This document shows positions 11,877-51,471 of a DNA stretch of 63,924 bases, one piece after another. The notes below the pieces were generated by a model, which did no database searches, was not told the DNA's origin, and saw nothing but the letters and a program-made list of their open reading frames with translations. The stretch spans positions 1 through 63,924 of the forward strand of contig JAHIKV010000324.1 of assembly GCA_018897395.1 (NCBI GenBank), written 5' to 3'. The first letter of the stretch is position 1, and every line of letters starts with the position of its first letter. This DNA comes from Planctomycetota bacterium. Lineage in GTDB: Bacteria > Planctomycetota > Planctomycetia > Pirellulales > Thermoguttaceae. The position numbers were made by a program, and so were the translations under genes.

Positions 11877-11880
11877 ACGG

Positions 11881-15368: not shown

Positions 15369-15626
15369 TTGATGCTGGTAGCACTCCATCGAGCAGAATC
15401 TTCTCCCGCCGGACTGGACCCCGGGACCGTGACCCCCCACGTCTTGCGTCACACTTGCGCGACCGAGCTCCTGCGCCGCGGGGTAAACTTGCGGGTGATT
15501 CAGGAAGCCCTGGGCCACAAGAACATCTCAACAACCCAGATCTACACCCACGTTGTCAACGAGGACGTGCGGCGGGCTATGAGGGTGGGGCCTGGGTTGG
15601 GTTTTAGCCGTAGTAGTGGCACTTGA
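15369..15626 (+). pseudogene. tyrosine recombinase (XerC/D-type) C-terminal fragment, copy A
   Basis: ...[50 protein letters not shown]... has the HxLRH and catalytic Tyr region only, with no N-terminal domains. The 105-bp core 15477-15582 recurs at three other sites. Confidence 0.8.
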
Positions 15627-15662
15627 TGGCCTCACCTTTTGCTTACTATTGAATTCTTCGTT

Positions 15663-19626: not shown

Positions 19627-19763
19627 CCCCTGCGCCAGGCAAGCCGCCGCCGCGGGGTAACCCTCCGGGTGATCCAGGAAGCCCTGGGGCACAAGAACAT
19701 ATCCACCACCCAGATCTACACCCACGTCGTAAACGAGGACGTGCGGCGGGCGATGAGCCGTTC
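19627..19763 (+). pseudogene. tyrosine recombinase 3' fragment, copy B
   Basis: [44 protein letters not shown]. Core 19651-19756. Confidence 0.75.
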
Positions 19764-19904
19764 TTACATAACAAAAGCGAGGCCATCTCTGACCCCGCTT
19801 TTCCATGCCTTACCATGCCGAACCGCGCCCTTCCGAACACCGACCACGCCTAACCATACTGGGCCTAACCGAACCCTGCCACGGCATCTTCAAGTACAAC
19901 AAAA

Positions 19905-21114: not shown

Positions 21115-21334
21115 CTTACGCCCGGCAAGCCGCCGGCGCGGGGCAAAGACCCCACGTATACCTTACCTTTGGCCCGGCGGCTGAAGCGGGGTCAACTTCC
21201 GGGTGATCCAGGAGGCCCTCGGGCACAAGAACATCTCCACCACACAGATCTACACCCACGTAGTCAATGAGGACGTCAGGCGGGCTATGAAGGGGGGGCC
21301 TGGGTTAGGTCGGAACCGCAGTGCTTACACTTGA
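21115..21334 (+). pseudogene. tyrosine recombinase 3' fragment, copy C (internally disrupted)
   Basis: LRPASRRRG, then a ~40-bp insert with a stop, then [41 protein letters not shown]...*. Core 21186-21290. The GPGLG tail is shared with copy A. Confidence 0.75.
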
Positions 21335-21381
21335 TTGCCATCATTTTCGTTGCTAATCCTCACCACTTATAGCCACAGTCC

Positions 21382-24666: not shown

Positions 24667-25413
24667 TCAGTTGTCGCTGCCTCCTTCAATCTCCCTGCGA
24701 ACCCCTTCCCTGGAGCGAAGGTCTGTGTGGTCAAGAGACTTGCCGTCCCGGTAACCTTGTGAGTATGCGGTTTCGTCCCCAAAGGCGGTGAGCTTCCTTT
24801 TTACACCATTGGTCATCTTCAAATCGTTGACATAGTCTATGACCATCGCGTTTTGCGTTAACACAAGCGCTTTCGACTCTACCTGCTCTCGGAATTTGTT
24901 CTCGAGACCGCTCACGAAGCCTCCGAGGTAATCGTTTCGTATCCTCATGGTTAAGCCGCGTGAACCCTTTCTCCCCCGGGTACTCTCTTTCTTCCACTTG
25001 GTTAAGAAACGATGGAAACATGTTGTGAACGCCCCAAACGCAAACATCAAGGTCTCCTTGCAGACCGCAACATCAGTCTCCAGTCCTATGAGGACAAACT
25101 TGCTCCCCATCCTACTGCCGCCGTAATCGTCTGTCCGAACACATGGCGTTACCCTAAAGTTCTCGCAGATCGGCCTGGTGATCATGAGTTTCCACGTGCT
25201 GGCGGACTTCATGCCGTCTTCTAGCGTTTCCTGTACGACCCGCTCTTCATCTTCCTCGTCGTCCAGGTCACCGACCTCCTCCATGGTTAGCCCGGCGCCG
25301 AGAAGAATCTCCTGCGCTTTCAACAGCGCCGCGAACGCCTCTTCCTCGTATGGTGTTCCGTCGGCAAGCCTCAGTAGCTTTTTCACTTTCGTTACGGTCT
25401 GTGACTTAAGCAA
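24667..25413 (-). CDS. DUF2786-domain protein (phage/plasmid-associated)
   Basis: N-terminus KVKKLLRLADGTPYEEEAFAALLKAQEIL is the DUF2786 signature. The start may be GTG 25386. Confidence 0.7.
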   Translation of the reverse strand: MLKSQTVTKVKKLLRLADGTPYEEEAFAALLKAQEILLGAGLTMEEVGDLDDEEDEERVVQETLEDGMKSASTWKLMITRPICENFRVTPCVRTDDYGGSRMGSKFVLIGLETDVAVCKETLMFAFGAFTTCFHRFLTKWKKESTRGRKGSRGLTMRIRNDYLGGFVSGLENKFREQVESKALVLTQNAMVIDYVNDLKMTNGVKRKLTAFGDETAYSQGYRDGKSLDHTDLRSREGVRREIEGGSDN

Positions 25414-25475
25414 CTATGGTTCAACCCCTTTGTTTCCCATCCTCAAACCGAATATCATCTACTATGTCGATAACA

Positions 25476-25730
25476 TCAATGAACTCGTCGGCAGCCCGTA
25501 TCAACTCCTCGGATGCCCTGTACCCGTTTATCTCGTAGATCTCTCTTGCCTCCGTGCTGGCCAGAATAGTAATATGCTCTGAGCAGCATCCCGTTCTGCG
25601 TCAGTAATTTCAGGAGCTTCACGTAATCAACCTTGAGTTGTAACGGTTCCCAGGTGGCCGATCGCCAGTTCCACCCATCCATGAATATTGCTGTTCGCCC
25701 CAGCTGTGTCACGGTGTAAGAAAGGTTCAT
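25476..25730 (-). CDS. NYN/LabA-like N-terminal fragment, possibly frameshifted
   Basis: TAIFMDGWNW...VDYVKLLKLL...LLRAYYY resembles the start of NYN-domain RNases. The frame ends early, and an adjacent frame stays open to about 25425. Confidence 0.35.
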   Translation of the reverse strand: MNLSYTVTQLGRTAIFMDGWNWRSATWEPLQLKVDYVKLLKLLTQNGMLLRAYYYSGQHGGKRDLRDKRVQGIRGVDTGCRRVH

Positions 25731-25741
25731 CTTGTTGATCG

Positions 25742-26656
25742 TTACCCACCTCTTATCTGTTCGTTCCGTCCGGTTACGCCGGCTCCAACGAGTATCTCGC
25801 CCTTATCCTCTCGCGCTTCGTACGCTTTTTCCGCCCTTGCGTGGTCTTCAACCGCATAACAGTAGATGCACCCGTGAGGGCACGAGTTATATGCGCCGAT
25901 GTCTCGAGACTCAAAACAGCAACACCCTTCCCTGTTCCCCTTCCTTTTTGCCTTGATTGGGTAGCCGGCCACGTCTGACAACCTGTAGGCGTCAACGCAG
26001 GCTGCCTCTTGCGCCCCGCCAACCGCATATTTCTTCTGAGAGCAAACGCTTAACTGCATCCTTCTTTCCGCCGCCACCTGCACCAGGTCTGACACCAGCT
26101 CTCTTTTTGACCAGTCTGATGGGTCAAACCACCTGAATCCCTGTTCTGCCGCAGCCCTGTTCATGTTCGTCGTGGTTTTTTGATACATCTGTGCGAATGA
26201 AACCACTACCTCATCTACCGCCCCCTCCAATGCTCTGGCCATTGCGTTGAACCTCGTTATATGCTGTTCTAACGTCATCGTGTTTGTCACCACTATTGGG
26301 TCATACCTCCACACCACGGTCCTCGGACCGTACCGTTCAGCCACCGCATGGGCCTGCTCAACAGAATCCCTCCAATCAACAACGCGCCCTTCGAGCTCTC
26401 TGGGATAACCATTAATCGTGTGCTGGATGATAAACGGGTAGCCGAGCGCGTCTATTTCTTCCAAATGGGGCAAGAAAGGGCCTAAGTTCTTGGTCCAGAA
26501 CACAAAGCCGTCAACATCGTCTCTGCCTAGAGGCACCCGGTTCTCGGTGCCGTTGTAGGGGTTACTTACCTTGCAGTGCCCCTCACGGAGCCTGGCCATG
26601 AACCATTCCCCGTAAAACGCCGGTATGTCGGTTCTGTAGCTTGCAGATATTATCAA
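25742..26656 (-). CDS. DUF1848-domain protein
   Basis: IISASYRTDIPAFYGEWF, VDGFVFWTKN, and a C-terminal Cys cluster CCCFESRDIGAYNSCPHGCIYCYA. Confidence 0.75.
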   Translation of the reverse strand: MIISASYRTDIPAFYGEWFMARLREGHCKVSNPYNGTENRVPLGRDDVDGFVFWTKNLGPFLPHLEEIDALGYPFIIQHTINGYPRELEGRVVDWRDSVEQAHAVAERYGPRTVVWRYDPIVVTNTMTLEQHITRFNAMARALEGAVDEVVVSFAQMYQKTTTNMNRAAAEQGFRWFDPSDWSKRELVSDLVQVAAERRMQLSVCSQKKYAVGGAQEAACVDAYRLSDVAGYPIKAKRKGNREGCCCFESRDIGAYNSCPHGCIYCYAVEDHARAEKAYEAREDKGEILVGAGVTGRNEQIRGG

Positions 26657-27088: not shown

Positions 27089-27117
27089 ATAATATTATGG
27101 TAGAGATAGTACGTCAA
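27089..27117 (-). promoter_or_regulatory. element-type promoter
   Basis: GTTGACGTACTATCTCTACCATAA-TATTAT (TTGACG, 17 nt, TATTAT). Confidence 0.7.
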
Positions 27118-27135
27118 CATATGGAGGTGTCGCAC

Positions 27136-27632: not shown

Positions 27633-27721
27633 TGGTGCCGACGGAGGGATTCGAACCCCCACGCCCGTTGCCGGACACCTGGATTTAAGCCAAGCGCGTC
27701 TTCCAGTTCCGCCACGTCGGC
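27633..27721 (-). tRNA. tRNA-Leu(UAA)
   Basis: Acceptor GCCGACG/CGUCGGC, anticodon loop CU-UAA-AU, long variable arm, T-loop UUCGAAU, CCA encoded. Confidence 0.85.
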
Positions 27722-27797
27722 TGGTAGCCCCTGCTGGTCTCGAACCAGCGGCCTCCTGTTTGTAAGACAGGCGCTCTCCCTGCTGAGCTAAGGGGCT
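27722..27797 (-). tRNA. tRNA-Val(UAC)
   Basis: Loop CU-UAC-AA, A1-U72, CCA encoded. Confidence 0.85.
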
Positions 27798-27801
27798 GTG
27801 T

Positions 27802-27888
27802 TGGTACCGGTGGAGAGAGTCGAACTCCCACGCCCTTTCGGACACCTGGTCCTAAGCCAGGCGCGTCTTCCAGTTCCGCCACACCGGC
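27802..27888 (-). tRNA. tRNA-Leu(UAG)
   Basis: Loop CU-UAG-GA, long variable arm, CCA encoded. Confidence 0.85.
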
Positions 27889-28051
27889 ACGGTTACCGCA
27901 ACAGCCATTAACCCCGGTTCCGTTCTACCCGGCCATCTATCTCGAGGCTTTATGCACCCCAGGTCATTGTTTCCCCCGGAGTTTCTCCTAAGGAACACTC
28001 GTTCCTCAGCGACAGGTGGTTGTCGCGGCAATATTCAGTTTTCAAGGTAGC

Positions 28052-28139
28052 TGGTGGCCGCACCAGGATTCGAACCTGGATGCTCGATGCGAACGGGAGC
28101 TTTTGAGGCCCCTGCGTCTTCCAATTCCGCCATACGGCC
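28052..28139 (-). tRNA. tRNA-Leu(CAA)
   Basis: Loop CU-CAA-AA, long variable arm, CCA encoded. Confidence 0.85.
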
Positions 28140-28142
28140 ATT

Positions 28143-28218
28143 TGGTCCCGAGGGCTGGGATTGAACCAGCGACGCCCTGGTCTTCGGCCAGGCGCTCTAC
28201 CGTCTGAGCTACCTCGGG
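28143..28218 (-). tRNA. tRNA-Phe(GAA), C33 variant
   Basis: Stem CCUGG/CCAGG, loop CC-GAA-GA (C at position 33), C1-G72, CCA encoded. Confidence 0.75.
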
Positions 28219-28221
28219 TTC

Positions 28222-28312
28222 TGGCGGAGAGAGCAGGACTCGAACCTGCAAGACGGCACTTGACCGTCCACGGGTTAGCAACCCGCTGCCTTACCAATTC
28301 GGCCACCTCTCC
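28222..28312 (-). tRNA. tRNA-Ser(GCU)
   Basis: Loop UU-GCU-AA, long variable arm, CCA encoded. Confidence 0.85.
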
Positions 28313-28313
28313 G

Positions 28314-28387
28314 TGGTTTGGGAGGGAGGGATCGAACCTCCAGCACCAGGTCCAAAGCCTGGCGTTCTACCGTTGAACTACTCCCAA
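28314..28387 (-). tRNA. tRNA-Gln(UUG)
   Basis: U1-A72, loop CU-UUG-GA, CCA encoded. Confidence 0.85.
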
Positions 28388-28388
28388 G

Positions 28389-28462
28389 TGGATGCCCGGG
28401 GAGGGGTCGAACCCCCGTCTCCTGGTCCAGGGCCAGGCGTCTTCCCACTAGACTACCGGGCA
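28389..28462 (-). tRNA. tRNA-Gln(CUG), C33 variant
   Basis: U1-A72, loop CC-CUG-GA (C33), CCA encoded. Confidence 0.75.
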
Positions 28463-28463
28463 T

Positions 28464-28556
28464 TGGCGGAGGGGAAGGGGATCGAACCCTTAAGACCCTC
28501 TCGGGCTCAACTGTTTTCAAGACAGTCTCCGTCGCCAGCCTTCGGATTGCCCCTCC
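28464..28556 (-). tRNA. tRNA-Ser(UGA)
   Basis: Acceptor GGAGGGG/CCCCUCC, G73, 3-bp D stem, loop CU-UGA-AA, long variable arm, CCA encoded. Confidence 0.8.
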
Positions 28557-28569
28557 GCACGCTTATAAT

Positions 28570-28646
28570 TGGTCGGGGTGGCAGGATTTGAACCTGCGCC
28601 CCCATGGTCCCAAACCATGTGCGCTACCTGACTGCGCCACACCCCG
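28570..28646 (-). tRNA. tRNA-Pro(UGG)
   Basis: Loop UU-UGG-GA, CCA encoded. Confidence 0.85.
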
Positions 28647-28655
28647 ATGATTTTC

Positions 28656-28731
28656 TGGAGCGACCGGCGGGTCTTGAACCCGCGACCTCAACCCTGGCAA
28701 GGTTGCGCTCTACCGTCTGAGCTACGGTCGC
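28656..28731 (-). tRNA. tRNA-Gly(GCC)
   Basis: Loop UU-GCC-AG, CCA encoded. Confidence 0.85.
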
Positions 28732-28732
28732 T

Positions 28733-28807
28733 TGGAGCGAGCAAAGGGGTTCGAACCCTTATGGCCGACTTGGAAGGCCGGGGCTCTACCGATTGAGCTA
28801 TGCTCGC
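28733..28807 (-). tRNA. tRNA-Gly(UCC)
   Basis: Loop CU-UCC-AA, CCA encoded. Confidence 0.85.
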
Positions 28808-28883
28808 TGGTGGAACCGGTCGGGATCGAACCGACAACCTCCTGGTTGCAAACCAGGTGCTCTCCCGATTGAGCTACAGTCCC
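28808..28883 (-). tRNA. tRNA-Ala(UGC)
   Basis: Loop UU-UGC-AA, G3:U70 identity pair present, CCA encoded. Confidence 0.9.
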
Positions 28884-28887
28884 GCGA

Positions 28888-28963
28888 TGGTCGGCCCGGC
28901 AAGAATCGAACTTGCAATCTACCGGTTAAGAGCCGGTTGCTCTGCCAATTGAGCTACGGGCCG
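28888..28963 (-). tRNA. tRNA-Lys(CUU)
   Basis: Loop CU-CUU-AA, CCA encoded. Confidence 0.85.
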
Positions 28964-28964
28964 A

Positions 28965-29039
28965 TGGTAGCGGCGGTGGGGATCGAACCCACGACCTCCA
29001 GGGTATGAACCTGGTGAGCTAACCACTGCTCCACGCCGC
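28965..29039 (-). tRNA. tRNA-Met(CAU), elongator type
   Basis: Loop UU-CAU-AC, paired 1:72, no GGG/CCC anticodon stem, CCA encoded. Confidence 0.8.
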
Positions 29040-29044
29040 ATTGT

Positions 29045-29119
29045 TGGGGTGACCTACCGGAATCGCACCGGCACCTCCAGGGCCACGGCCTGACGCTCTT
29101 CTATTGAGCTAAGGTCACC
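29045..29119 (-). tRNA. tRNA-His(GUG), C33 and atypical T-loop
   Basis: Encoded G-1 opposite C73, loop CC-GUG-GC (C33), T-loop UGCGAUU, CCA encoded. Confidence 0.7.
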
Positions 29120-29123
29120 TCGT

Positions 29124-29200
29124 TGGCTGCGGTGGCAAGATTCGAACTTGCGACACGGCGGTTAACAGCCGCCTGCTCTACCACTGAGCTACACCGCAGC
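29124..29200 (-). tRNA. tRNA-Asn(GUU)
   Basis: Loop CU-GUU-AA, CCA encoded. Confidence 0.85.
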
Positions 29201-29350
29201 GTTGCCCGACCCCACTCGAGAGGTCGGGCTTGCCGTTGACCGCCCTGGCCGATCACGTTACCTTAATACTGCTGCAAACGCTCTTGCTTCTCTCTTCAAT
29301 CAAACCCCCTTCCTTGCCTTTCTTTGCCAGTCACTCACGCTTTAGTTTTT

Positions 29351-29434
29351 TGGTGGGGATGTCAGGAATCGAACCTGCCTAGTCATCGACGCCGGGGTTA
29401 CGGCCCGGCACAGCTCCCACGCTGTCGCATCCCC
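29351..29434 (-). tRNA. tRNA-Tyr(GUA), C33 variant
   Basis: Loop CC-GUA-AC (C33), long variable arm as in bacterial tRNA-Tyr, CCA encoded. Confidence 0.7.
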
Positions 29435-29435
29435 T

Positions 29436-29509
29436 TGGAGGCGGAGACAGGAATCGCACCTGCGTGTGCCGGTTTGCAGCCGGCCGCTTTTCTCCTCAGC
29501 CACTCCGCC
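29436..29509 (-). tRNA. tRNA-Cys(GCA), atypical T-loop
   Basis: Loop CU-GCA-AA, T-loop UGCGAUU, CCA encoded. Confidence 0.75.
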
Positions 29510-29510
29510 T

Positions 29511-29584
29511 TGGTGGACCCGGATGGTGATGCTCCACCTCCTCCCGCTTATGAGGCGGGCGTTCTCCTGTTAAACTACGGGTCC
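29511..29584 (-). tRNA. tRNA-Ile2-like (CAU), atypical T-loop
   Basis: Loop CU-CAU-AA. Acceptor and D-arm (GGACCCGUAGUUUAAC) are nearly identical to tRNA-Ile(GAU) at 30085. T-loop AGCAUCA. CCA encoded. Confidence 0.65.
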
Positions 29585-29660
29585 TGGAGCCGGTGGAGGG
29601 CATCGAACCCCCGACCTTGGCATTACAAGTGCCCTGCTCTGCCATCTGAGCTACACCGGC
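29585..29660 (-). tRNA. tRNA-Thr(UGU)
   Basis: Loop CU-UGU-AA, CCA encoded. Confidence 0.85.
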
Positions 29661-29664
29661 TGTT

Positions 29665-29740
29665 TGGCACCCCCGCGAGGATTTGAACCCCGAACCTCCC
29701 GGGCCGAAACCGGGCGCTCTATCCGTTGAGCTACGGAGGT
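29665..29740 (-). tRNA. tRNA-Arg(UCG)
   Basis: A1-U72, loop UU-UCG-GC, CCA encoded. Confidence 0.8.
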
Positions 29741-29767
29741 ACATGTTGTTTGTCTTTTTCTGCTATT

Positions 29768-29844
29768 TGGAGGCCATCCCCGGACTCGAACCGGGAACAT
29801 CCACCTTAGGAGGGTGACGCTCTGTCCAGTTGAGCTAGATGGCC
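29768..29844 (-). tRNA. tRNA-Arg(CCU)
   Basis: Loop CU-CCU-AA, CCA encoded. Confidence 0.85.
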
Positions 29845-29852
29845 TTTTCCTT

Positions 29853-29929
29853 TGGAGCCCCCGGTCGGACTTGAACCTACAACCTGTGGATTAGAAGTCC
29901 ACCGCTCTATCCAATTGAGCTACGGGGGC
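29853..29929 (-). tRNA. tRNA-Arg(UCU)
   Basis: Loop CU-UCU-AA, CCA encoded. Confidence 0.85.
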
Positions 29930-29930
29930 T

Positions 29931-30005
29931 TGGCGCCCTGTAGGAGAGTCGAACTCCTATCTCCTCCTCGACAGGGAGGTATGCTTGCCACTACACCAAC
30001 AGGGC
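29931..30005 (-). tRNA. tRNA-Asp(GUC)
   Basis: Loop CU-GUC-GA, CCA encoded. Confidence 0.85.
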
Positions 30006-30084
30006 TGGTGGCCTCTGAGGGATTTGAACCCTGCGTTTCCGGGTTGAAAGTCCGGCGTCCTTGACCTGGCTGGACGAAGAGGCC
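30006..30084 (-). tRNA. tRNA-Glu(UUC)
   Basis: Loop CU-UUC-AA, enlarged D-loop, CCA encoded. Confidence 0.8.
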
Positions 30085-30159
30085 TGGTAGACCCGGAAGG
30101 CTTCGAACCCTCGCTTCACCCTAATCAGGGGTGCGTTCTGCCGGTTAAACTACGGGTCT
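30085..30159 (-). tRNA. tRNA-Ile(GAU), U37 variant
   Basis: Stem CACCC/GGGUG, loop CU-GAU-UA (pyrimidine at position 37), CCA encoded. Confidence 0.75.
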
Positions 30160-30347
30160 TTTAGGATGCCTAGCCGCTACCACCCAGGCCACTAAGGACC
30201 GGGGTCCACCCCAAACCGCTTCACTCCTCGCGGCAACACTCCCCGGGTCACACCGGGCGGAGTGCTTTCGGCACCAATACTTTTCCAGCTATTCTTTTTT
30301 CAAGGTTCCGCATCCCGCGTCTTTCCAGCGAGACAGTCACCGACTAT

Positions 30348-30423
30348 TGGTTGCGGGGGCGGGAGTTGCACCCGCACCCTCAGGGTTATGAACCCCGCTG
30401 AGCTGCTCCAGCTCCACCCCGCT
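30348..30423 (-). tRNA. initiator tRNA-fMet(CAU), atypical T-loop
   Basis: A1/A72 mismatch, GGG/CCC pairs closing the anticodon stem, loop UU-CAU-AA, T-loop UGCAACU, 3' end CCCCGCAACCA as in bacterial initiators. Confidence 0.75.
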
Positions 30424-30431
30424 TCATTTCC

Positions 30432-30507
30432 TGGTGGAGGTGGCAGGCCTCGAACCTGCGGCCTCCGGGTTAAAAGCCCGTTGCTCTGCCGTCTGAGCTA
30501 CACCTCC
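30432..30507 (-). tRNA. tRNA-Lys(UUU)
   Basis: Loop CU-UUU-AA, CCA encoded. Confidence 0.85.
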
Positions 30508-30509
30508 GC

Positions 30510-30584
30510 TGGCGGGCCGGGAAGGACTCGAACCTCCACTCTCCGGTTTTGGAGACCGTTGTGTTCCCGTTACACCACCGACCC
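30510..30584 (-). tRNA. tRNA-Trp(CCA)
   Basis: Loop CU-CCA-AA, G73, CCA encoded. Confidence 0.85.
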
Positions 30585-30595
30585 GTACTCCCACT

Positions 30596-30619
30596 AAAAA
30601 ACCGCCCCGTTCGAGGCGG
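30596..30619 (-). terminator. intrinsic terminator-like hairpin 12 nt upstream of the first tRNA
   Basis: RNA CCGCC-UCGAACGG-GGCGG followed by UUUUUU. tRNA-Trp starts at 30584. Confidence 0.6.
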
Positions 30620-30881
30620 CCTTGAGGAGTAATCCGTCAAAGAGTCACGTTACGCCCCCCGACCACCGCCTTCCCGTACGCCCTCGAAATAACCTGTGAG
30701 GGCACAAATCGGGTCCCAGGTCCCTGATGGCACCGTCTGGTGCTTCAAGGTTTTCCTCGCTATTCCATTCAGTTGTCGTGCTCTTCGTTTCACCATCAAC
30801 CTTCCGCTTTTCGTTCCCTGTCTATACAAACGCTTTCCATTCTGCGCTTGTTCCCAGTCAACACCTTTCTCTACAATAACT

Positions 30882-30910
30882 ATAATACTATCGCCATGAT
30901 AGTGAGTCAA
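30882..30910 (-). promoter_or_regulatory. element-type promoter heading the leader and tRNA array
   Basis: GTTGACTCACTATCATGGCGATAG-TATTAT (TTGACT, 17 nt, TATTAT). Confidence 0.65.
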
Positions 30911-30977
30911 CCGTCATTTCAACAATAATGTCCCTGATATTTTTCATGCCTGATGAATCTCCACCCGCTATTGCGGC

Positions 30978-31930: not shown

Positions 31931-33973
<2,043 letters not shown>

Positions 33974-33980
33974 CTATATG

Positions 33981-34009
33981 ATAATACGATGGTACGGATT
34001 GTAGGTCAA
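33981..34009 (-). promoter_or_regulatory. element-type promoter (ligA)
   Basis: GTTGACCTACAATCCGTACCATCG-TATTAT. Confidence 0.7.
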
Positions 34010-34031
34010 CCTTGAGGACGTCAATTACCCA

Positions 34032-37033: not shown

Positions 37034-37990
37034 TTAGCCATCTCGCTCGCATCTTACCCTGCCGTCTTCGCATATTACCGCAACGTGGTCGGTCCCTTGA
37101 ACCCGGTCAACGCCTTTCTCCCTAGCGTATTTGGTCAACTTCTTCGCCAGCACCCACGCACGGTCAACCTTTTGGTCCACGACCTTCTTTAGAAGAGCCA
37201 GTTCTTCGACGGCTTCTCCCAACTCCAGCCCCGGCCCGCCGCCATTCCCCTTCTTGGCCTTGTCTGGCTTCTTCTTCCCTTCCCACAGCGGACACCTTTC
37301 TATGTAGTCGCACCATGGGCAAAGCGGCCCCTTGCTCGGCTGAAACTCCTTGTCCTCAATTGCCGTGACCACCCGGGCGATTTCCTCTTTGGCCTCGGCT
37401 ATCCGTTCTTTGCTTATCGTCACGCTGTGCTTATGGTTCGGCAGCACGTAGTAGAATGAGGCCGTCTCCGGTTCCACTCCCCAAACCTCGCTTACTGCCA
37501 TGTGGTAGATCGGCAGTTGTAGGTCGGTCTTGAGTATCTTCGCTGGCGGCAGGCGTCGGCTTGTCTTGTAGTCAATTATTTCGAAACCGCCGTCCGGGTC
37601 CTTGTCCAGCCGGTCGATTCTCCCGCTCATTTTGCAAACGCCCAGGTCTATCAAGAACTTGCGCTCCAGGGCCACCGGTACCCTGAACTCCCCAACATTA
37701 TGCTTGTGGAAGCACCGCAGGATTCCCTGCGCCTGATAGAAGTACATTGTTTCCTCGCCCTTCGAGGTGTACCCGTCACCTATCCAGCAGGTTTCCAGGT
37801 ACTCCAGCAGGTCGTCCAGAGGTCTGGGGTCCGCGGTTGGGATGTCGTAGAACCACCTCAAGGCTTCATGTACGCTGTTCCCAAACGAGAACACCGCCTT
37901 CGGCCCAACCCGTATCTTGTCAACGTACTGGTACTTGTACTGTAACGGACAGTTTTGATACGTGCTTATCGCGCTATAACTGGCTCTCAT
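37034..37990 (-). CDS. PD-(D/E)XK nuclease, Cas4/RecB-exonuclease-like with 4-Cys cluster
   Basis: N-terminal Cys (YQNCPLQYKY), core GRIDRLD...FEIIDYKTSRR...QLPIYH, and C-terminal CPWCDYIERC. Confidence 0.8.
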   Translation of the reverse strand: MRASYSAISTYQNCPLQYKYQYVDKIRVGPKAVFSFGNSVHEALRWFYDIPTADPRPLDDLLEYLETCWIGDGYTSKGEETMYFYQAQGILRCFHKHNVGEFRVPVALERKFLIDLGVCKMSGRIDRLDKDPDGGFEIIDYKTSRRLPPAKILKTDLQLPIYHMAVSEVWGVEPETASFYYVLPNHKHSVTISKERIAEAKEEIARVVTAIEDKEFQPSKGPLCPWCDYIERCPLWEGKKKPDKAKKGNGGGPGLELGEAVEELALLKKVVDQKVDRAWVLAKKLTKYAREKGVDRVQGTDHVAVICEDGRVRCERDG

Positions 37991-44253: not shown

Positions 44254-44799
44254 CTACCAGGGTCCCCCATCATCAATGGGTTCGACGGGGTCTTCTCTTG
44301 CTGGTACCTGTGGCGCCGGAGCCGTCTTGTTGCCACTTCCTTCTATGGTCCCACCGAGGATATCCTCTAGTGGGTCAACGACCGCCTCTGTTGCCGGACG
44401 CTGCGGCTGGCTCGGTTGCTCCTGACGGTTCGTGTTCCTGTTGTTGGACCCGTTCCCGTTCTTGGCGATTGTCTCCAGGTTGTTCACTTTCAACTGGAGT
44501 TGGAACCGCTTCTGCCCCGTCTCGGCATCATCCCAGCTCCGTGGCACCAATTTCCCATCAACCGCGATGTAGTCGCCGACCTTGAGCCCACCGTTGTTCA
44601 CGATGGTTTTTGCGTAGTTGCCCCACGCGACAGCGGTCATGTACAGAACGTCGTCCTCCCACACCCCGTCGCCATTCTTCTTTCTGCCGTTCACGGCTAT
44701 CCGAAGGTTCACGCGGGGTGTCCCGTCCTCGTTCGGCGGTTCGAATAGCTTCGCGTCCTTCGTCAACCTTCCCGTCAGCATCGTCCTGTTTACATTCAT
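44254..44799 (-). CDS. ssb: single-stranded DNA-binding protein
   Basis: OB-fold N-terminus (MNVNRTMLTGRLTKDAKL...YMTAVAWG), a Gly/Asn/Gln/Pro-rich linker, and an acidic tail EPIDDGGPW. Confidence 0.9.
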   Translation of the reverse strand: MNVNRTMLTGRLTKDAKLFEPPNEDGTPRVNLRIAVNGRKKNGDGVWEDDVLYMTAVAWGNYAKTIVNNGGLKVGDYIAVDGKLVPRSWDDAETGQKRFQLQLKVNNLETIAKNGNGSNNRNTNRQEQPSQPQRPATEAVVDPLEDILGGTIEGSGNKTAPAPQVPAREDPVEPIDDGGPW

Positions 44800-44836
44800 C
44801 CCTTCCCCCTCTGTCTATCGCCTCGACACTATGTAT

Positions 44837-44865
44837 ATAATAGGGTGGATAGGATAGTGCGTCAA
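44837..44865 (-). promoter_or_regulatory. element-type promoter (ssb)
   Basis: GTTGACGCACTATCCTATCCACCC-TATTAT. Confidence 0.7.
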
Positions 44866-44927
44866 CCTTGAATCCAATAATATATTGTCCTTCGGGTGTT
44901 TTCTGGTGTCTCTCTGTGCTGTTCTAT

Positions 44928-45602
44928 CTACCGCACTTGGTCTATCAGGCTTTTTCCCTGGCTAACGAGTGTTTCTAGGCCAACTTCCTTTAGTACCTCT
45001 CCCCAGTTCGCCTCGCTCAACACCTTGCTCCAGTCGAGAGTTTCCAGCACTCCCTTGGCGTCGGCCTCCTCCACCGTTTCCCCGGGTCCGCTTTTCACGC
45101 TAATCGTTTTCTCCACTTTTTCCCAGTCCACCTGATCGAGAAGGCTCTCCCAGTCAATCTTGCCATTCATTATCGCCTTGCTCATGTCTATCTTCTCTGC
45201 CACCTGGTCCAACGGCAACGGAAACTCCACGGCTGATCCTATTGATTCTAGCAATACCTCTATCTGCGGCACTTTCAGCTCTAGGGGTATGCCGTTGCCG
45301 ACATCGAACTTTACAGGAACTTCCGACAGGCCGCTCATCCTTATGTCCACCGGTGGGACTTCTTCCATTTTCACCTCAGCAGTGATCGGCGGTATCTCTC
45401 CCGCTTCCACCCTGACCGGTATCTCCCCGCTCATGTCCACGTTGACGTTGAGGTCAACTTCGGGGTCTTCCATCTTCACCTTCATGGAAGCTCCTGGCTC
45501 CATCTCCACAGAAGTTTTTATCGCCCCACAGCCTGCCGCCAGCATCACTCCCATCGCCGCCACGACTGTTATTGCCACCACTATTGTTGCCCATTTTCTC
45601 AT
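44928..45602 (-). CDS. lipoprotein, unknown function
   Basis: Lipobox MLAAGCG. 224 aa, acidic. Confidence 0.55.
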   Translation of the reverse strand: MRKWATIVVAITVVAAMGVMLAAGCGAIKTSVEMEPGASMKVKMEDPEVDLNVNVDMSGEIPVRVEAGEIPPITAEVKMEEVPPVDIRMSGLSEVPVKFDVGNGIPLELKVPQIEVLLESIGSAVEFPLPLDQVAEKIDMSKAIMNGKIDWESLLDQVDWEKVEKTISVKSGPGETVEEADAKGVLETLDWSKVLSEANWGEVLKEVGLETLVSQGKSLIDQVR

Positions 45603-45627
45603 CTTGCTCTTCCTCCTGGTCGCTCTT

Positions 45628-46512
45628 CTACTTGCCGGCTCCGGCCGCCCTGGTCATGGCTCTTGCCGTTTTCATTATCCCTTTCGCCATGTCTTCAATC
45701 CTCGTGCACGCCTTTATTTGCTCTTCATCCCCTGCTTCTATCTCTCCTAGCAGCTCCGTGACCTCTTCGTACACCTTTTCCAGTGTCCTTGCCACTCTCT
45801 CTACCCCCACCCTCGGGCTCACCCTCGGGCTCTTTCCCTTTCTCTCGCTTGCGAGGGACGCCGCTTTCGCCACCGACCATCCTTCTTTGTCGCATTCCAC
45901 CAGTGTTGGCGCAGGCAAGCTGTCTACCGAGAGGTACTTCCTCACCATCCTGGCACTTATGTCGAGCTTCCCGGCAACGGCCTCCCATCCTTCTCGCACT
46001 TCCACGTTCCCGCCGGCCTGCTCTGTTCTCAGCCGCCGCATCTCCTCTTCATATATCTCGGTTACCGCCCTTGCTCTTTTAGACAAGGGGAGGTCTCTTC
46101 GCTGGAAGTTCTCAACTATTGCTATCTCTCGAGCCGTTCTGCCGGTCAGGTCGCAGATTCTCGCCTCGATTTCTCTCCTCCCAGCCAGTTTAACTGCCAG
46201 GTATCGCCTTTCGCCCGCGATTATCTCGAACCTGCCCCCCTCCGCCTGTCTCACCAGTATCGGATGTATCAGCCCGTGTTCCTTGACCGATTTGGCAAGG
46301 TTCTTGACCTCCTCCAACGATACGCTGCCCCGCGGTTGCTCCGGATTTGGGTCTACAATGCTTACCGGGATCAGCCTTATGCTTTGCTCCTCTTGAAGCC
46401 CCTCGACTTTTCTCAGCTCCTGCATTTTCTCACTGTCGAACGGGATTACGTTTGACGGGCTGGATGTCCCCTCTTCCAGCGGATTCCTCTTCTTTAGTTG
46501 CTTTCCGGCCAT
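45628..46512 (-). CDS. parB: ParB-like partition/nuclease-domain protein
   Basis: ParB N-terminal box HGLIHPILVRQAEGGRFEIIAGERRYLA. Immediately downstream of parA. Confidence 0.85.
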   Translation of the reverse strand: MAGKQLKKRNPLEEGTSSPSNVIPFDSEKMQELRKVEGLQEEQSIRLIPVSIVDPNPEQPRGSVSLEEVKNLAKSVKEHGLIHPILVRQAEGGRFEIIAGERRYLAVKLAGRREIEARICDLTGRTAREIAIVENFQRRDLPLSKRARAVTEIYEEEMRRLRTEQAGGNVEVREGWEAVAGKLDISARMVRKYLSVDSLPAPTLVECDKEGWSVAKAASLASERKGKSPRVSPRVGVERVARTLEKVYEEVTELLGEIEAGDEEQIKACTRIEDMAKGIMKTARAMTRAAGAGK

Positions 46513-47319
46513 CTATACCACCTGCCGTTCCGCTTCTTCTGCCAACGTCTTCAGGTTTTCATTCTTCTCTAGTCTCTCGACTATCTCCCTCGCCATACAG
46601 CGATACTGTTCCGCTCCCTCGCACCTGGGTGCGTACTCTGTGACCGGCAGCCCCACTGCCGGCGCTTCCGCTATCTTGACCGTTTTCTTAATGAGGCTCC
46701 TGAGGAGCGTGGGGCCGAAGTATCGCTCCGCCTGCTCCAGGTTTTCTCTGGCGTCTCGCGTGGACTTCTCATAGAACGTTACCGCTACCCAGTATTTAAG
46801 TGAGGGGTTCATGGTTTCGAGTACCCGCCCCAATATGTTCAAGAACTGTCCTACCCCCAGCATGTCAAAGAATTGGCTTCTCGTTGGGATTATTGCCCTG
46901 TCGGCCGCTACCAGTGCATTTGTCGTGAGGAAGTCCTGCCCGGGCCCGCAGTCTATTATCGTAAAGTCGAAGTTGCCGTTGAGGGATGCCAGTTGTTCTT
47001 TGAGTGTTTCGACATCTCCCCTCCGGTACAGCGCATACTGGCTGTCCGTCAGTTCCGCCCGTCCTCCCGCTACCCATATGTTCTTGACAGGCCCCCTTTG
47101 CATGGCCTGCTCTACGCTTTTATCGCCCCTCATCACGTCGGCCATGGACTTCCCCATTACGGCATTCAGGCCCATGCCCACCGTGAGGCTCGCCTGCGGG
47201 TCGATGTCCACCAGTAGCACCTTGTACCCCATTTCCCCCAGGGACGCGCCCAGGTTGATGCAGGTCGTGCTCTTGCCCACCCCACCTTTGTTGTTCACTA
47301 CCGCTAATATTCTCATCAT
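46513..47319 (-). CDS. parA: ParA/Soj partition ATPase
   Basis: Deviant Walker A NNKGGVGKST after start MMRILAVV (ATG 47319 or 47316). The ORF-track start lies inside the promoter. Confidence 0.9.
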   Translation of the reverse strand: MMRILAVVNNKGGVGKSTTCINLGASLGEMGYKVLLVDIDPQASLTVGMGLNAVMGKSMADVMRGDKSVEQAMQRGPVKNIWVAGGRAELTDSQYALYRRGDVETLKEQLASLNGNFDFTIIDCGPGQDFLTTNALVAADRAIIPTRSQFFDMLGVGQFLNILGRVLETMNPSLKYWVAVTFYEKSTRDARENLEQAERYFGPTLLRSLIKKTVKIAEAPAVGLPVTEYAPRCEGAEQYRCMAREIVERLEKNENLKTLAEEAERQVV

Positions 47320-47341
47320 AAAAGATATTGCCTCATCAATT

Positions 47342-47370
47342 ATTATATTCCCCGGGTCTCTGTATGTCAA
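47342..47370 (-). promoter_or_regulatory. parAB promoter
   Basis: ATTGACATACAGAGACCCGGGGAA-TATAAT. Confidence 0.65.
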
Positions 47371-47397
47371 TTGTCTGTGCCCCTGTTGGCCATAATT

Positions 47398-47422
47398 AAA
47401 ACCCCCGCTTGACGGGGGTTTT
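47398..47422. terminator. bidirectional intrinsic terminator
   Basis: AAAA-CCCCCG-CUUGA-CGGGGG-UUUU between the HIRAN gene and the parA promoter. Confidence 0.75.
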
Positions 47423-47501
47423 CTCGTGTCCTTGCTCTTATTCCTTATTCTTCAAACCCGTGCGTTCTCGCTCACCCTGGACTCATGTTCTCCCCGGCAT
47501 T

Positions 47502-47864
47502 TCAGCTTGCACGTTTTATCTCGATCACCAACCCCCTCGTCTTCCCCTCTTCTTTTCCCGTAAGCGCAGTCACCTTTGCCCTGAACCTGGCGCCTCCCGC
47601 TATCGACTTTGACATCGACTCTGCCAGCTTTTTCTTCCGCCCGTCCGGCGTTTTCCTGTACCGCGGCACGTATCCGACCAGCTTCTTCTCTGCTCCCTCT
47701 TCTCTTACCACCGCAACCGCGTATGGGTCGGTCTTGTTGGTCGGGTGTCTCATTATGCTCAGGCTCTCCCCCACCCTGACTTTCCTCACGGTTTCTTGCC
47801 TCTTGTTGAAGCTTACTCCCACTACCTTTGTCGGGAACGGTTTCGGAAACGGCAGCGTCTTCAC
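47502..47864 (-). CDS. HIRAN-domain protein
   Basis: GTG 47864 overlaps the upstream stop (GTGA). VVGVSFNKRQ...GESLSIMRHPTNKTDPYAVAVV...KLVGYVPR fits HIRAN. Only the last 120 codons of ORF 47502..48416 are used. Confidence 0.7.
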   Translation of the reverse strand: MKTLPFPKPFPTKVVGVSFNKRQETVRKVRVGESLSIMRHPTNKTDPYAVAVVREEGAEKKLVGYVPRYRKTPDGRKKKLAESMSKSIAGGARFRAKVTALTGKEEGKTRGLVIEIKRAS

Positions 47865-49606
47865 TTTTTCCACCCTCTCGTGTAATCCTTGATTGCCTTG
47901 GTTAGTCTTGATGGCAACGTCTCTGTGTCCTCTGCGAATACGTACCTTGAGTAAATCTTCTTTAGGTGGTTGTCGCTCTTTGGCCCTATGTAGATACACA
48001 TCACGTCCGCAAACCTCTCGACATCCTTCACGCTTATCCTTGTGTCCTCTATTGCCCCTGCCCCCCAGTAGTCGATGCTTTGGGGCAGTCCGTCGCTTAT
48101 CACAACCATCAGCTTTCTTCTGTTCTTCTCGGCCCTCAGGTACTCTCCCGCAAGATTGATAGCCAGTCCGTCCCTGTTGTTGTCTCTTGCCCTTACGTTT
48201 GCCAGTTTCGCCGAGAGTGACCTGGTTACCCTTTCCCCGAACTTGATGTATGCCCTCAGCCGCAAGTTGTCCGTTACGCCACAGTTGTCGAACCCCATTA
48301 CCGAGTGCCTTATCCCAAGCTCTCTTAGCGCTTCGTGTAACGCCACCGCCGCTTCTCTCAAGTGCTTTTCTCTTGTGTACATAGACCCGCTTTCGTCGAG
48401 CAGCACCATCACACAAGGTTCTCTGTTTACCTTTGCCCGCTGGTTCCTGAATATACTCTTCTCCCCTAGAACTGACCTGTACACCAGCGGCGGGTCCACG
48501 GTCCCCCTTCTCTCTTCCCGCCTTACGTCGTCCAGCTCTTCCCTCAGTAGTATCAACTTCAACGCCTTCTTGAGCTTCTTTGCGGCGGGTTTTGTCACCG
48601 CCTTTACGTTCTCATACTCTGCCAGATCCCCGTCCGGCCTTTCCAAAACCACTTCTGCGGAGAACCTTAGTACCCGATTTTTGTACTCTTCTTTCCCCCC
48701 TCTTATTGCTTTTTCCAGTCCATTTTCCCCCTCTGCGTTCGCCCTGCCCGTTTCCTCGATCTCCCTCTCGATCTCCCGCAGCAGTTCTTCCTCTCTGTCT
48801 TCTCCCCCCTTTTCTGCTTCTCCGAGCACCGTCACGTCTTCCTCTTTGCCTTCCGGTATCGCTTCCCCCCCCACGTCCACCCTTATCTTCGGCCCCTCTC
48901 CCGGCATATCGTCACTTGATAGTTGAGGCTCCCCTACCCCGGGAAAATCCTTCGCTCCTGGCGGGATCAGGTCTTTTACTATCTCCCATATGTCCTCTGC
49001 CCCCGCCAGCACGTCCAGCGGGTCTCGTGCATACCTTGCCTCTGCCACCTTCGGCTTTACTCCCTCAACGATGTTCCTTATTGCGCTTCCCGATATCCCG
49101 TCGCTTGACTTCTTGAAACGGGTCCTTATCTCTCCAAGCTTTGAGAGTTCCCACATGGCACTCCACACCTGTTGCCACGCCGTCGCTTCCCCTTCTATCT
49201 TTTCATACATGTGTTCGTTCATCGTGCCCAGCAGCGCGTTCGCCCTTTTGACCGCCTGTCTCAGCAGTAACTCTATCCGCCCGTCCTCGAGCAAGTTCCA
49301 GATATTCTTTATCCCGTTCTTTGACTCTTCCTTCCGTCCTGCTTCGACTACCGTCTCTGTCGGTGTGTACAGGGCATGCCCCGCTTCGTGGAGCACCATG
49401 GCCTTGGCTATGTGCAATTCTTCCATGCCACCTTCCATCTCTTCCACGCGGATCAGGTTCCTCACGTGCTCATAGGACGCCCCGATTCCCTCGCCGTACA
49501 GGACCCTTATCGTCCAGTCATTCGCCACCCGGTGCGCGTACCGGCTCAAGAAACCTGCGATTACGTCTCTGCTTACGCTGGCCTTCTCCTTAAGCAGCAA
49601 GCTCAT
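47861..49606 (-). CDS. vWA-domain protein with N-terminal HExxH motif (CobT-like)
   Basis: MVLHEAGHALYTP near the N-terminus, an acidic linker, a vWA MIDAS motif VLLDESGSM, and VVISDGLP. Confidence 0.8.
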   Translation of the reverse strand: MSLLLKEKASVSRDVIAGFLSRYAHRVANDWTIRVLYGEGIGASYEHVRNLIRVEEMEGGMEELHIAKAMVLHEAGHALYTPTETVVEAGRKEESKNGIKNIWNLLEDGRIELLLRQAVKRANALLGTMNEHMYEKIEGEATAWQQVWSAMWELSKLGEIRTRFKKSSDGISGSAIRNIVEGVKPKVAEARYARDPLDVLAGAEDIWEIVKDLIPPGAKDFPGVGEPQLSSDDMPGEGPKIRVDVGGEAIPEGKEEDVTVLGEAEKGGEDREEELLREIEREIEETGRANAEGENGLEKAIRGGKEEYKNRVLRFSAEVVLERPDGDLAEYENVKAVTKPAAKKLKKALKLILLREELDDVRREERRGTVDPPLVYRSVLGEKSIFRNQRAKVNREPCVMVLLDESGSMYTREKHLREAAVALHEALRELGIRHSVMGFDNCGVTDNLRLRAYIKFGERVTRSLSAKLANVRARDNNRDGLAINLAGEYLRAEKNRRKLMVVISDGLPQSIDYWGAGAIEDTRISVKDVERFADVMCIYIGPKSDNHLKKIYSRYVFAEDTETLPSRLTKAIKDYTRGWKK

Positions 49607-51131: not shown

Positions 51132-51150
51132 GCTTATCACCTCAAGTATT

Positions 51151-51179
51151 AATATATGTTCTATGGGATAGTACGTCAA
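51151..51179 (-). promoter_or_regulatory. element-type promoter (AAA+/vWA/HIRAN operon)
   Basis: GTTGACGTACTATCCCATAGAACA-TATATT. Confidence 0.7.
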
Positions 51180-51281
51180 CATTTAACGTTGTTTTTTTGT
51201 ATATCAAATCTTTACTTGAAACAAAAACTTATTGGGCTCGACCGGCCCTCAGGGCCTCCCTAACGCCCTGGTGAAGAAAGG

Positions 51282-51392
51282 GCGCGGTAAACTTTTCTGG
51301 CCACCCAAGAAGCCCTGGGCCACAAGAACATCTCAACCACACAGATTTACACCCACGTTGTCAATGAGGACGTTAGAAGGGCGATGAGTTAG
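51282..51392 (+). pseudogene. tyrosine recombinase 3' fragment, copy D
   Basis: ...[28 protein letters not shown]. Core 51282-51387. The tail is of the same type as copy B. Confidence 0.75.
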
Positions 51393-51471
51393 TGCTCCAA
51401 TTCAAGACTACGGTAACGTATCCCGACAGCACTATATACTGCCCACCATGGGGAAAGCTGAGAATACCCCG

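Follow-up and report, generated by a model that had tools for sequence, protein, structure and literature searches.

Organization of the tRNA array

The window analysed here, the complete contig JAHIKV010000324.1 of 63,924 nt (assembly GCA_018897395.1), carries a dense array of tRNA genes on its minus strand, set within an island of low-GC DNA at about 14.5-51.4 kb. The union of ARAGORN and Rfam predictions placed exactly 30 tRNA genes in the 2952 nt from 27633 to 30584, a density of 10.2 genes per kb. An initial annotation of this DNA had already proposed thirty minus-strand tRNA genes separated mostly by 0-10 nt, and its gene order and list of anticodons matched the program calls exactly. 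ARAGORN identified 29 of the genes, and the Rfam model RF00005 supplied the thirtieth, an Ile-like tRNA with a CAU anticodon at 29514-29584 (52.1 bits). With RF00005, whose gathering score is 29, 28 genes reached 38.6-72.2 bits; the two class II tRNAs that fell below that threshold, Ser-UGA and Tyr, were both detected by ARAGORN and gave sub-threshold matches to the tRNA-Sec model. No further tRNA genes were found by either program in the rest of the window, and the Rfam scan of the window confirmed that the array lies away from rRNA genes. The array and its gene order are as follows.

27633..30584, minus strand: tRNA array of 30 genes (ARAGORN, Rfam; stems, CCA ends and identity elements checked)
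Genes 1-10 in transcription order: Trp, Lys-UUU, iMet, Ile-GAU, Glu, Asp, Arg-UCU, Arg-CCU, Arg-UCG, Thr
Genes 11-20: Ile2-like CAU, Cys, Tyr, Asn, His, Met, Lys-CUU, Ala, Gly-UCC, Gly-GCC
Genes 21-30: Pro, Ser-UGA, Gln-CUG, Gln-UUG, Ser-GCU, Phe, Leu-CAA, Leu-UAG, Val, Leu-UAA
30160-30347 (188 nt), 29199-29350 (152 nt) and 27889-28051 (163 nt): long spacers inside the array

The array covers all 20 amino acids, as the initial annotation had stated, together with an initiator and an Ile2-type tRNA, and has 28 different anticodons among its 30 genes. Its further claim that every four-codon box holds a U34 tRNA was also correct. Five of the 29 spacers are 0 nt long and 24 are no longer than 10 nt; the others comprise one of 13 nt, one of 27 nt and the three long spacers, in which we found no Rfam match, common motif, tRNA remnant or significant fold. 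With all genes on one strand and a longest spacer of 188 nt, the genes lie close enough for co-transcription. The composition of the array is non-periodic and does not reflect tandem repetition of a small unit: Leu-UAG and Leu-UAA are the only clear paralogues (83% identity), and the median pairwise identity is 0.61.

Integrity and identity of the tRNAs

All 30 genes have the features expected of bacterial tRNAs, namely a cloverleaf, a 7-bp acceptor stem, a 5-bp T stem, an anticodon loop, and a discriminator followed by CCA, and the encoded CCA could be read directly in every one of them, in agreement with the initial annotation. The acceptor stem has seven positions in 30 of 30 tRNAs, with 1:72 mismatches limited to two Met-type CAU tRNAs, and the T stem has five positions, of which a single one is non-pairing in three tRNAs (Glu, Arg-UCU and Tyr). 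The Glu tRNA in this copy also has an A31xC39 mismatch. Long variable arms are present in Ser, Leu and the bacterial-type Tyr tRNAs. The identity elements that we read in the sequences were G3:U70 in Ala, an encoded G-1 opposite C73 in His, U73 in Cys, C1:G72 in Pro, U1:A72 in Gln, U73 in Gly, G73 in Asp and G73 in Trp; the matching of such elements to their synthetases is established from E. coli.

Three tRNAs share the anticodon CAU:

30348..30423, minus strand: initiator-type tRNA(CAU), with an A1xA72 mismatch, A11:U24 and G29-31:C39-41
29511..29584, minus strand: Ile2-like tRNA(CAU), Rfam 52.1 bits, with acceptor stem and D arm as in Ile-GAU
28965..29040, minus strand: Met(CAU), with an elongator-like anticodon arm and 3' half, U1xU72 and an initiator-like A11:U24 D arm

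These can be separated by sequence features into the initiator, Met and Ile2-like species that had been proposed. For the initiator, the A1xA72 mismatch, A11:U24 and the three G:C pairs of the anticodon stem confirm the assignment; the same gene has the lowest Rfam score of the array (38.6 bits) and a TGCAACT T-loop with G at position 55. The Ile2-like tRNA shares its acceptor stem and D arm with Ile(GAU), as claimed, and has an aberrant AGCATCA T-loop; this is the gene overlooked by ARAGORN. It is presumably lysidine-dependent and would be modified by the TilS of the host. The description of the third species as an elongator Met stood in part. It is closest to a Bacillaceae elongator Met, with 78% identity to that tRNA and 71% to the initiator, but U1xU72 and the initiator-like D arm speak against a plain elongator. 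The comparators here were CAU tRNAs of Niallia, blastn against E. coli genomes having given no match. It is probable that this tRNA serves as an elongator, although its features leave the role less than certain.

Other departures from the consensus were seen in loops. G replaces the near-universal U55 in the T-loops of iMet (30348-30423), Cys (29436-29509) and His (29045-29118), and the D-loop of the His tRNA is without GG. The non-canonical T-loops could entail altered tertiary pairing between the D and T loops.

A variant of the locus in another assembly (L001), covering the first nine to ten tRNAs, was 97.5% identical to the present copy. The differences comprised 11 of 711 tRNA nucleotides and 19 of 491 leader or spacer nucleotides (Fisher p = 0.014), and nine of the 11 tRNA differences lay in D or variable loops, with stems avoided. 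Genes under structural constraint are expected to show just this pattern.

Codon usage of the island and its flanks

Codon usage was compared between 20 island genes and 12 flank genes, and the element differed clearly from the DNA around it. GC3 was 0.66 in the island genes and 0.78 in the flank genes, and relative to the flanks the island was shifted from NNC towards NNA and NNG, the codons that U34 tRNAs such as those of the array decode. Within the four-codon boxes NNA made up 0.239 of codons in the island versus 0.105 in the flanks, and NNC 0.224 versus 0.419. The shares of individual codons were as follows.

GCA share of Ala: island 0.31, flanks 0.10
CCA share of Pro: island 0.21, flanks 0.07
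TCA share of Ser: island 0.15, flanks 0.05
CAA share of Gln: island 0.36, flanks 0.13
AGA share of Arg: island 0.24, flanks 0.12
ATA share of Ile: island 0.58, flanks 0.35

ATA is the commonest Ile codon of the island, at 30 per 1000 codons, and is frequent in the flanks as well. AGG and AGA together are the main Arg codons of the island, AGG is the commonest Arg codon of the flanks, and the coding strands of both island and flanks are strongly purine-rich.

The fraction of codons with a Watson-Crick cognate in the array was 0.51-0.62 in all 20 island genes versus 0.42-0.50 in all 12 flank genes, with no overlap between the two groups (Mann-Whitney p = 3e-6). With classical wobble, the tRNAs of the array can read 87.5% of the codons in the island and 76.8% of those in the flanks. 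Seven of the four-codon boxes hold a U34 tRNA only, which under classical wobble leaves 14 NNY codons without a reader; these 14 codons account for 23% of codons in the host flanks and 12.5% of those in the island. Since they require four-way wobble by U34, self-sufficient decoding is not established, and the proposal that the set decodes all 61 sense codons by itself is valid only on condition that U34 pairs with each of the four bases. A set with U34-only boxes would serve poorly as a housekeeping set for flanks in which 42% of four-box codons are NNC.

Promoters, leader and hairpin

The array lies behind a promoter of a type that recurs through the island. The signals around the array are:

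30882..30912, minus strand: sigma-70-like element-type promoter, GGTTGACTCACTATC ... TATTAT, about 290 nt upstream of tRNA-Trp
30585..30876, minus strand: leader of about 290 nt from promoter to first tRNA (compared with L001)
30597..30623, minus strand: terminator-like hairpin with an 11-bp stem, a GC-rich core, a GAAC loop and a U6 run
27089..27119, minus strand: next element-type promoter, 3' of the array, opening the following transcription unit (motif copy)
27105, 30898, 33997, 34636, 36951, 38049, 40088, 41315, 44853 and 51167: starts of the minus-strand motif copies

The promoters share a 15-nt motif, GGTTGACGTACTATC, with TATnAT about 17 nt after the TTGAC(G) hexamer of the motif. It has 12 matches in the window, where 0.95 would be expected by chance, and 10 of the 12 are on the minus strand, all at 27105-51181 and each in front of a gene block. 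The array is one part of a block of at least 24 kb in which ten transcription units all have one element-specific promoter motif. The ten copies point to a single element-specific regulon, which may include an operator that overlaps the -35 region.

The leader is probably non-coding. It contains a 48-aa ORF, which we rejected as coding because all three of the differences from L001 that fall in it are nonsynonymous or destroy the ATG. The hairpin has a folding energy of -16.8 kcal/mol (z = -2.75), ends 12 nt before tRNA-Trp and is kept in L001. No promoter-like site was found inside the array, and no terminator in the approximately 70 nt on its 3' side. Because the hairpin stands between the promoter and the array, basal expression is probably low or conditional.

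The carrier island

The GC content of the island is about 0.53, compared with about 0.60 in the flanks (1-14,500 and beyond 51,500), and its genes are nearly all on the minus strand. Pfam and/or PHROGs scans covered about 40 ORFs, many of which had no match. The main recognizable genes are:

44254..51182, minus strand: first island operon, with AAA_5 (CbbQ/NorQ-like), VWA (CobT_C), HIRAN, ParA, ParB, a 224-aa protein and SSB
37034..37990, minus strand: PD-(D/E)XK (RecB/Cas4-like) exonuclease, with a chromosomal paralogue adjacent to dnaE in related genomes
31931..33958, minus strand: NAD-dependent DNA ligase, a LigA paralogue served by an element-type promoter of its own (33997-34011)
24667..26656, minus strand: DUF1848 protein, NYN remnant and DUF2786/DUF7168 protein, downstream of the array
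23076-23702, minus strand: DDE_3 (IS630-type) transposase ORF of 208 aa, probably truncated, inside the island

The genes for the AAA_5 ATPase, the VWA (CobT_C) protein and the HIRAN protein, at 47502-51182 on the minus strand, open the island, and further genes encode a B12-binding/radical-SAM protein, a PC4-like protein and an MBL-fold protein. The CobS/CobT-like pair has remote relatives only, with 27-34% identity in the VWA domain to Vibrio phage ICP2 and to plasmid CobT-like genes; the remote tblastn matches were to the CobT of ICP2, to Salmonella and Acinetobacter plasmids of about 106-112 kb and to further Yersinia plasmids. Together with ParA/ParB, SSB, the exonuclease and the NAD-dependent ligase, all in low-GC DNA, this pair bears out the earlier description of the neighbouring genes as plasmid-type, the set as a whole being of plasmid/phage type.

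Among the scanned ORFs we found no capsid, portal, terminase or tail family, and no relaxase, FtsK-like translocase, type IV secretion or replication-initiator family. A lone PHROG match to a "tail protein" proved to be the MBL-fold domain. The view of the locus as a capsid-less element of about 30 kb thus agrees with these scans in that no capsid gene was detected, but the island may be the remnant of a larger phage or phage-plasmid. PADLOC gave partial or accessory matches and no complete defence system in the window, and no tRNA-targeting nuclease or toxin was identified there.

Downstream of the array, the DUF1848 protein gave a match to RTasDUF1848, a PADLOC model for an accessory to reverse transcriptases associated with defence, but there is no adjacent reverse transcriptase gene. 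The NYN remnant is 84 aa long; in a locus from another metagenome (L004, 1202-3460) an 86%-identical trio has an intact NYN gene and lies beside an rve transposase. That locus was considered as a relative through its DUF1848 homologue (86%) and set aside, as it adjoins a transposase and carries no tRNAs.

Integrase fragments and mobility

The modules of the island are delimited by four 3' fragments of tyrosine-recombinase genes on the plus strand, at about 15478, 19652, 21186 and 51283, which have a common amino-acid core:

15369..15631, plus strand: longest integrase 3' fragment, near the left compositional edge (Phage_integrase positions 121-169 of 172, E = 9e-19)
19652-19805, plus strand: integrase 3' fragment
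21186..21339, plus strand: integrase 3' fragment, the left repeat of the 30-kb unit of the initial annotation
51232..51436, plus strand: integrase 3' fragment at the right edge of the island

The fragments match the C-terminus of Pfam Phage_integrase, none is full length, and they are 62-83% identical to one another. What had been taken for direct repeats bounding the element are in fact these diverged gene ends and not clean att duplications. A row of such fragments would be consistent with repeated insertion at the 3' end of an integrase gene or with the decay of several tandem elements.

No intact or full-length recombinase and no clean att duplication were found in the 64 kb, and the integrase-core DNA pattern was absent from a scan of IMG/VR. 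At least six other assemblies contain the element at 100% identity and with an unchanged right-hand junction, and their contigs often end within the array or at one of the integrase fragments. Sequencing runs with the element are SRR11548472, SRR11548474, SRR7080200 and SRR6516042, together with the reads underlying ERZ27247108, ERZ27247110, ERZ27247113 and ERZ24794679. Exact-protein look-ups with the VWA protein and flank proteins gave only identical integrated copies, with no empty site and no circular junction. The DNA earlier termed a "mobile element" is compositionally foreign and putatively mobile; no intact integrase, empty site or circular junction was found, and the junction is the same in every other assembly with the element.

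Host lineage and related sequences

The metagenome-assembled genome (MAG) to which the contig belongs is labelled Planctomycetes/Planctomycetota (NCBI proteins MBU4273865.1 and MBU4273876.1), while the informative homologues of flank and island proteins, where their source is named, carry the label Actinobacteria/Actinomycetota. The LigA of MAGs so labelled, for example Anoxymicrobiaceae and Aquicultor, has 53-59% identity to the island ligase, and the island exonuclease is 56-57% identical to a chromosomal gene beside dnaE, ileS and the his operon. A giant protein of the flank had one relative among the species representatives of the Genome Taxonomy Database (GTDB), in an Actinomycetota MAG (59% identity). 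This makes the bin label doubtful: either the contig was binned wrongly or the bin carries a wrong label.

The related loci that we fetched were without the island, and their only tRNA genes were an ordinary chromosomal pair for Cys and Gly in one related genome (L015). This pair lies beside the his operon and encodes CCA; its tRNA-Cys is 71% and its tRNA-Gly(GCC) 79% identical to the counterparts in the array. The exonuclease homologues were rejected as related islands, being chromosomal genes next to dnaE, and the GTDB Actinomycetota MAG was rejected as a related locus, having no gene order in common with the window and no island.

Searches of phage and plasmid collections returned no relative of the element. 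Megablast of 24 kb of the island against INPHARED and PLSDB gave single-tRNA matches only, and in blastn of the array alone against the same collections no record covered more than 16%; the best match, from Niallia, is an ordinary Bacillaceae tRNA cluster of different order. In IMG/VR no relatives turned up for the ligase, VWA, AAA_5 and radical-SAM proteins, and a scan of JGI metagenomes with the T-arm pattern of the Ile2-like tRNA found only a chance match of 22 nt. The nearest non-identical ligase (62%; loci L002 and L003, from Logan SRR17165147 and SRR17165148) belongs to an unrelated gene-dense element, which has a single tRNA-His and a UvrD helicase and ends beside a giant Big/DUF5719 protein.

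Comparison with known tRNA arrays

Horizontally transferred arrays of 20-43 tRNAs with all 20 isotypes have been described on chromosomes, plasmids, prophages and phages (PMC8421152, PMC5966550, PMC6582537), so the initial annotation overstated the case in calling a full set on such an element unusual. L-arrays have up to 43 genes, are horizontally spread, consist of supernumerary tRNAs, and are poorly transcribed and inducible by translational stress (PMC8421152). Like them, the present array is long, non-periodic, on one strand and potentially co-transcribed, lies in foreign DNA, and has isoacceptors that would be largely redundant with the needs of a host; the terminator-like hairpin in front of it fits the poor basal transcription reported for L-arrays. 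It differs in being denser (10.2 genes per kb), in having no adjoining homing or HNH gene, and in coming from an uncultivated Actinomycetota-like MAG.

A tRNA array unit is defined as at least 20 tRNAs at a density of at least 2 per kb (Tran et al. 2016, as quoted in PMC5966550), and the present array, with 30 genes at 10.2 per kb, falls within this class. Such units occur on mycobacterial chromosomes, plasmids, prophages and phages and may include all 20 isotypes (Morgado & Vicente 2018, PMC5966550), and some tRNAs of horizontally acquired mycobacterial clusters are expressed (Behra et al. 2019, PMC6582537). Besides the definition, the present array has in common with them the 20 isotypes, a location in mobile-element DNA and probably the phylum, Actinomycetota; Arg-UCG is also encoded in a horizontally acquired mycobacterial cluster. 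The mycobacterial arrays are 3-19 kb long with 2-9 tRNAs per kb and often contain tmRNA, GOLLD RNA or HNH genes, none of which is present here. They also differ from the present array in its carrier of 24-37 kb without structural or conjugation genes, and there is no sequence collinearity. The order and sequences of the present array are unrelated to any array in the phage and plasmid collections searched.

Clusters of tRNA genes are also known from large lytic phages such as T4, T5 and the jumbo phages. The present array resembles these in being rich in U34, which fits the more A/T-ending codons of the element, in its odd single tRNAs, and in having an NAD-dependent ligase and CobS/CobT-like genes nearby, but it is integrated between host genes, with no virion genes detected, and four island proteins had no IMG/VR relatives. 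With the housekeeping operons of Firmicutes, represented by a 21-tRNA cluster on a Niallia taxi megaplasmid (L021), it has in common the tight spacing on one strand, the encoded CCA and the three CAU species. The two differ in order and anticodon set, and the Bacillaceae cluster has Arg-ACG and is of the resident housekeeping type.

The array is thus an addition to a known class and not a new kind of system, and it leaves the current picture unchanged, 20-amino-acid arrays on mobile DNA of Actinomycetota having been described already. What the case adds is a dense, complete array of near-minimal, U34-based design in a poorly known, uncultivated lineage, on a small carrier that has a promoter regulon to itself. 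To this come the agreement of the array with the codon usage of its carrier, which is unusually clean in quantitative terms, and a terminator-like hairpin right before the first tRNA. It would be a convenient case for two open ideas on horizontally transferred tRNA arrays, that of codon-usage compensation and that of a conditional supply for backup or against host defence.

Origin and role of the array

Based on these data, we consider it probable (roughly 0.6) that the 30 genes form a horizontally acquired long array, of the kind called tRNA array unit or L-array, on a low-GC phage- or plasmid-like island, and that they are an accessory set supplementing the tRNA pool of the host. The island is integrated, and by now apparently fixed, in a chromosome or large replicon; its uncultivated bacterial host resembles the Actinomycetota. 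Its foreign composition, codon usage and gene content all appear to support acquisition. The tRNAs themselves do not seem to be of host type, to judge from their 71% and 79% identity to the chromosomal tRNAs of L015, the three T-loops with G55 and the one reading AGCATCA.

The processing and charging of these tRNAs would follow general bacterial tRNA biology. Transcription from the promoter near 30910 would give one polycistronic precursor and would have to read through the hairpin that ends 12 nt before the first tRNA. RNase P would then cut each 5' end, and at the five 0-nt junctions the same cut would leave the tRNA upstream with its mature CCA 3' end; at the other junctions, exonucleases would remove trailers of 1-27 nt. 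The aminoacyl-tRNA synthetases, TilS and other modification enzymes of the host would complete the array tRNAs, which would supplement the host pool without replacing it and would favour translation of the A/G-ending codons of the island, among them ATA, AGA/AGG, CAA and NNA in the four-codon boxes.

Several points weigh against this reading. With the hairpin directly upstream, the array could be largely silent, and the four tRNAs with non-canonical T-loops may function poorly. The putatively mobile island has no intact integrase, clean att duplication, empty site or circular junction, and its junction is the same in all other assemblies. The conflict between a Planctomycetota label and Actinomycetota-like homologues makes the identity of the host uncertain, and the tRNA set of the host itself is inferred and not observed. 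The codon match could reflect the lower GC content of the island combined with a general tendency of mobile tRNA sets towards U34. Finally, the Trp, Met and two-codon-box G34 tRNAs have no rationale in codon bias, and a role of the whole set as a backup fits them at least as well.

Such a backup role is the alternative that we take most seriously, although it appears considerably less probable than an accessory supplement. The array would stay silent behind the terminator and be expressed when host tRNAs are damaged, restoring translation with a divergent and complete set that might escape recognition by tRNA-cleaving nucleases; the trigger may be the anticodon nucleases of defence or toxin systems, translation-targeting antibiotics, or takeover functions of the element itself. 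This would account for a set that is complete for 20 amino acids plus the initiator, including those tRNAs without a codon-bias rationale, for the succession of promoter, leader and terminator directly before the first tRNA, and for the strong divergence from host-lineage tRNAs and the unusual T and D loops. There is also precedent in the trn operon of Anabaena sp. PCC 7120, a cryptic L-array that responds to translational stress by induction and helps the cells to survive (Santamaria-Gomez et al. 2021, PMC8421152), and phage tRNA loci have been linked to escape from tRNA-cleaving defence, as outlined in PMC13096335. However, our analysis of the window turned up neither a nuclease or toxin directed at tRNA nor a defence system, as the PADLOC matches were partial or accessory only, and the strong codon-usage match, while compatible with a backup set, is not needed by it.

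We think it unlikely that the array is relic cargo, that is, a neutral or slowly decaying part of an island of 24-37 kb representing the surviving early or replication module of a decayed, larger temperate phage or phage-plasmid. The gene set is one of large phages and phage-plasmids (CobS/CobT-like, ParA/ParB, SSB with an exonuclease, NAD-dependent ligase, radical SAM and DUF2786 proteins, with the remote ICP2 and plasmid matches), structural genes are missing, and decay is suggested by the truncated integrases, the IS630-type DDE_3 fragment and the NYN remnant. A uniform element at one site in every assembly, and tRNAs with odd T-loops, U1xU72 in Met and A31xC39 in Glu, would also suit a relic. 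Yet all 30 genes keep their cloverleaves, CCA ends and identity elements, the L001 differences avoid stems, the ten promoters are well conserved, and the long ORFs of the island are intact.

Equally doubtful is the bolder view that the promoter-defined unit of 24-30 kb would be a complete, capsid-less and conjugation-less ParA/ParB element of an undescribed family, with a near-minimal decoder behind a read-through terminator. If this were true, the element could sustain translation of its genes under depletion or cleavage of the host tRNAs, and it would be the smallest known mobile element with a full decoding set. As a related possibility, such elements may insert successively into the 3' end of an integrase gene, leaving the four fragments.

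It is very improbable that the array is the housekeeping tRNA cluster of the host, comparable with the long operons of Firmicutes. All 20 amino acids are represented, chromosomal tRNA genes of the host lineage also encode CCA, and the host set is known only by inference, but the array lies in a low-GC island behind an island-type promoter, among phage and plasmid genes and with no rRNA link, has U34 only in seven four-codon boxes next to flanks with 42% NNC in four-box codons (GC-rich bacteria are not known to dispense with G34 tRNAs in such boxes), is only 71-79% identical to chromosomal tRNAs of the related lineage, which sit in ordinary chromosomal contexts, and has non-canonical T-loops.

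Other features of the flanking DNA

The flanks of the island carry genes of host type, among them those for a Pst phosphate transporter, PAS/histidine kinases and two giant surface proteins, and in addition response regulators and a group II intron. The group II intron lies at 10042-11757 on the minus strand, with Rfam domains D1-D4 at 11464-11546 and 11588-11757 (139.9 bits) and a reverse transcriptase/maturase ORF at 10042-11427. The giant proteins, of secreted type and with BNR, TIG and DUF5719 domains, are encoded on either side of the island at 11881-14502 and 51472-56655, both on the minus strand. Their C-terminal parts are paralogous, and the larger of the two is internally repetitive, with units of about 117 nt.

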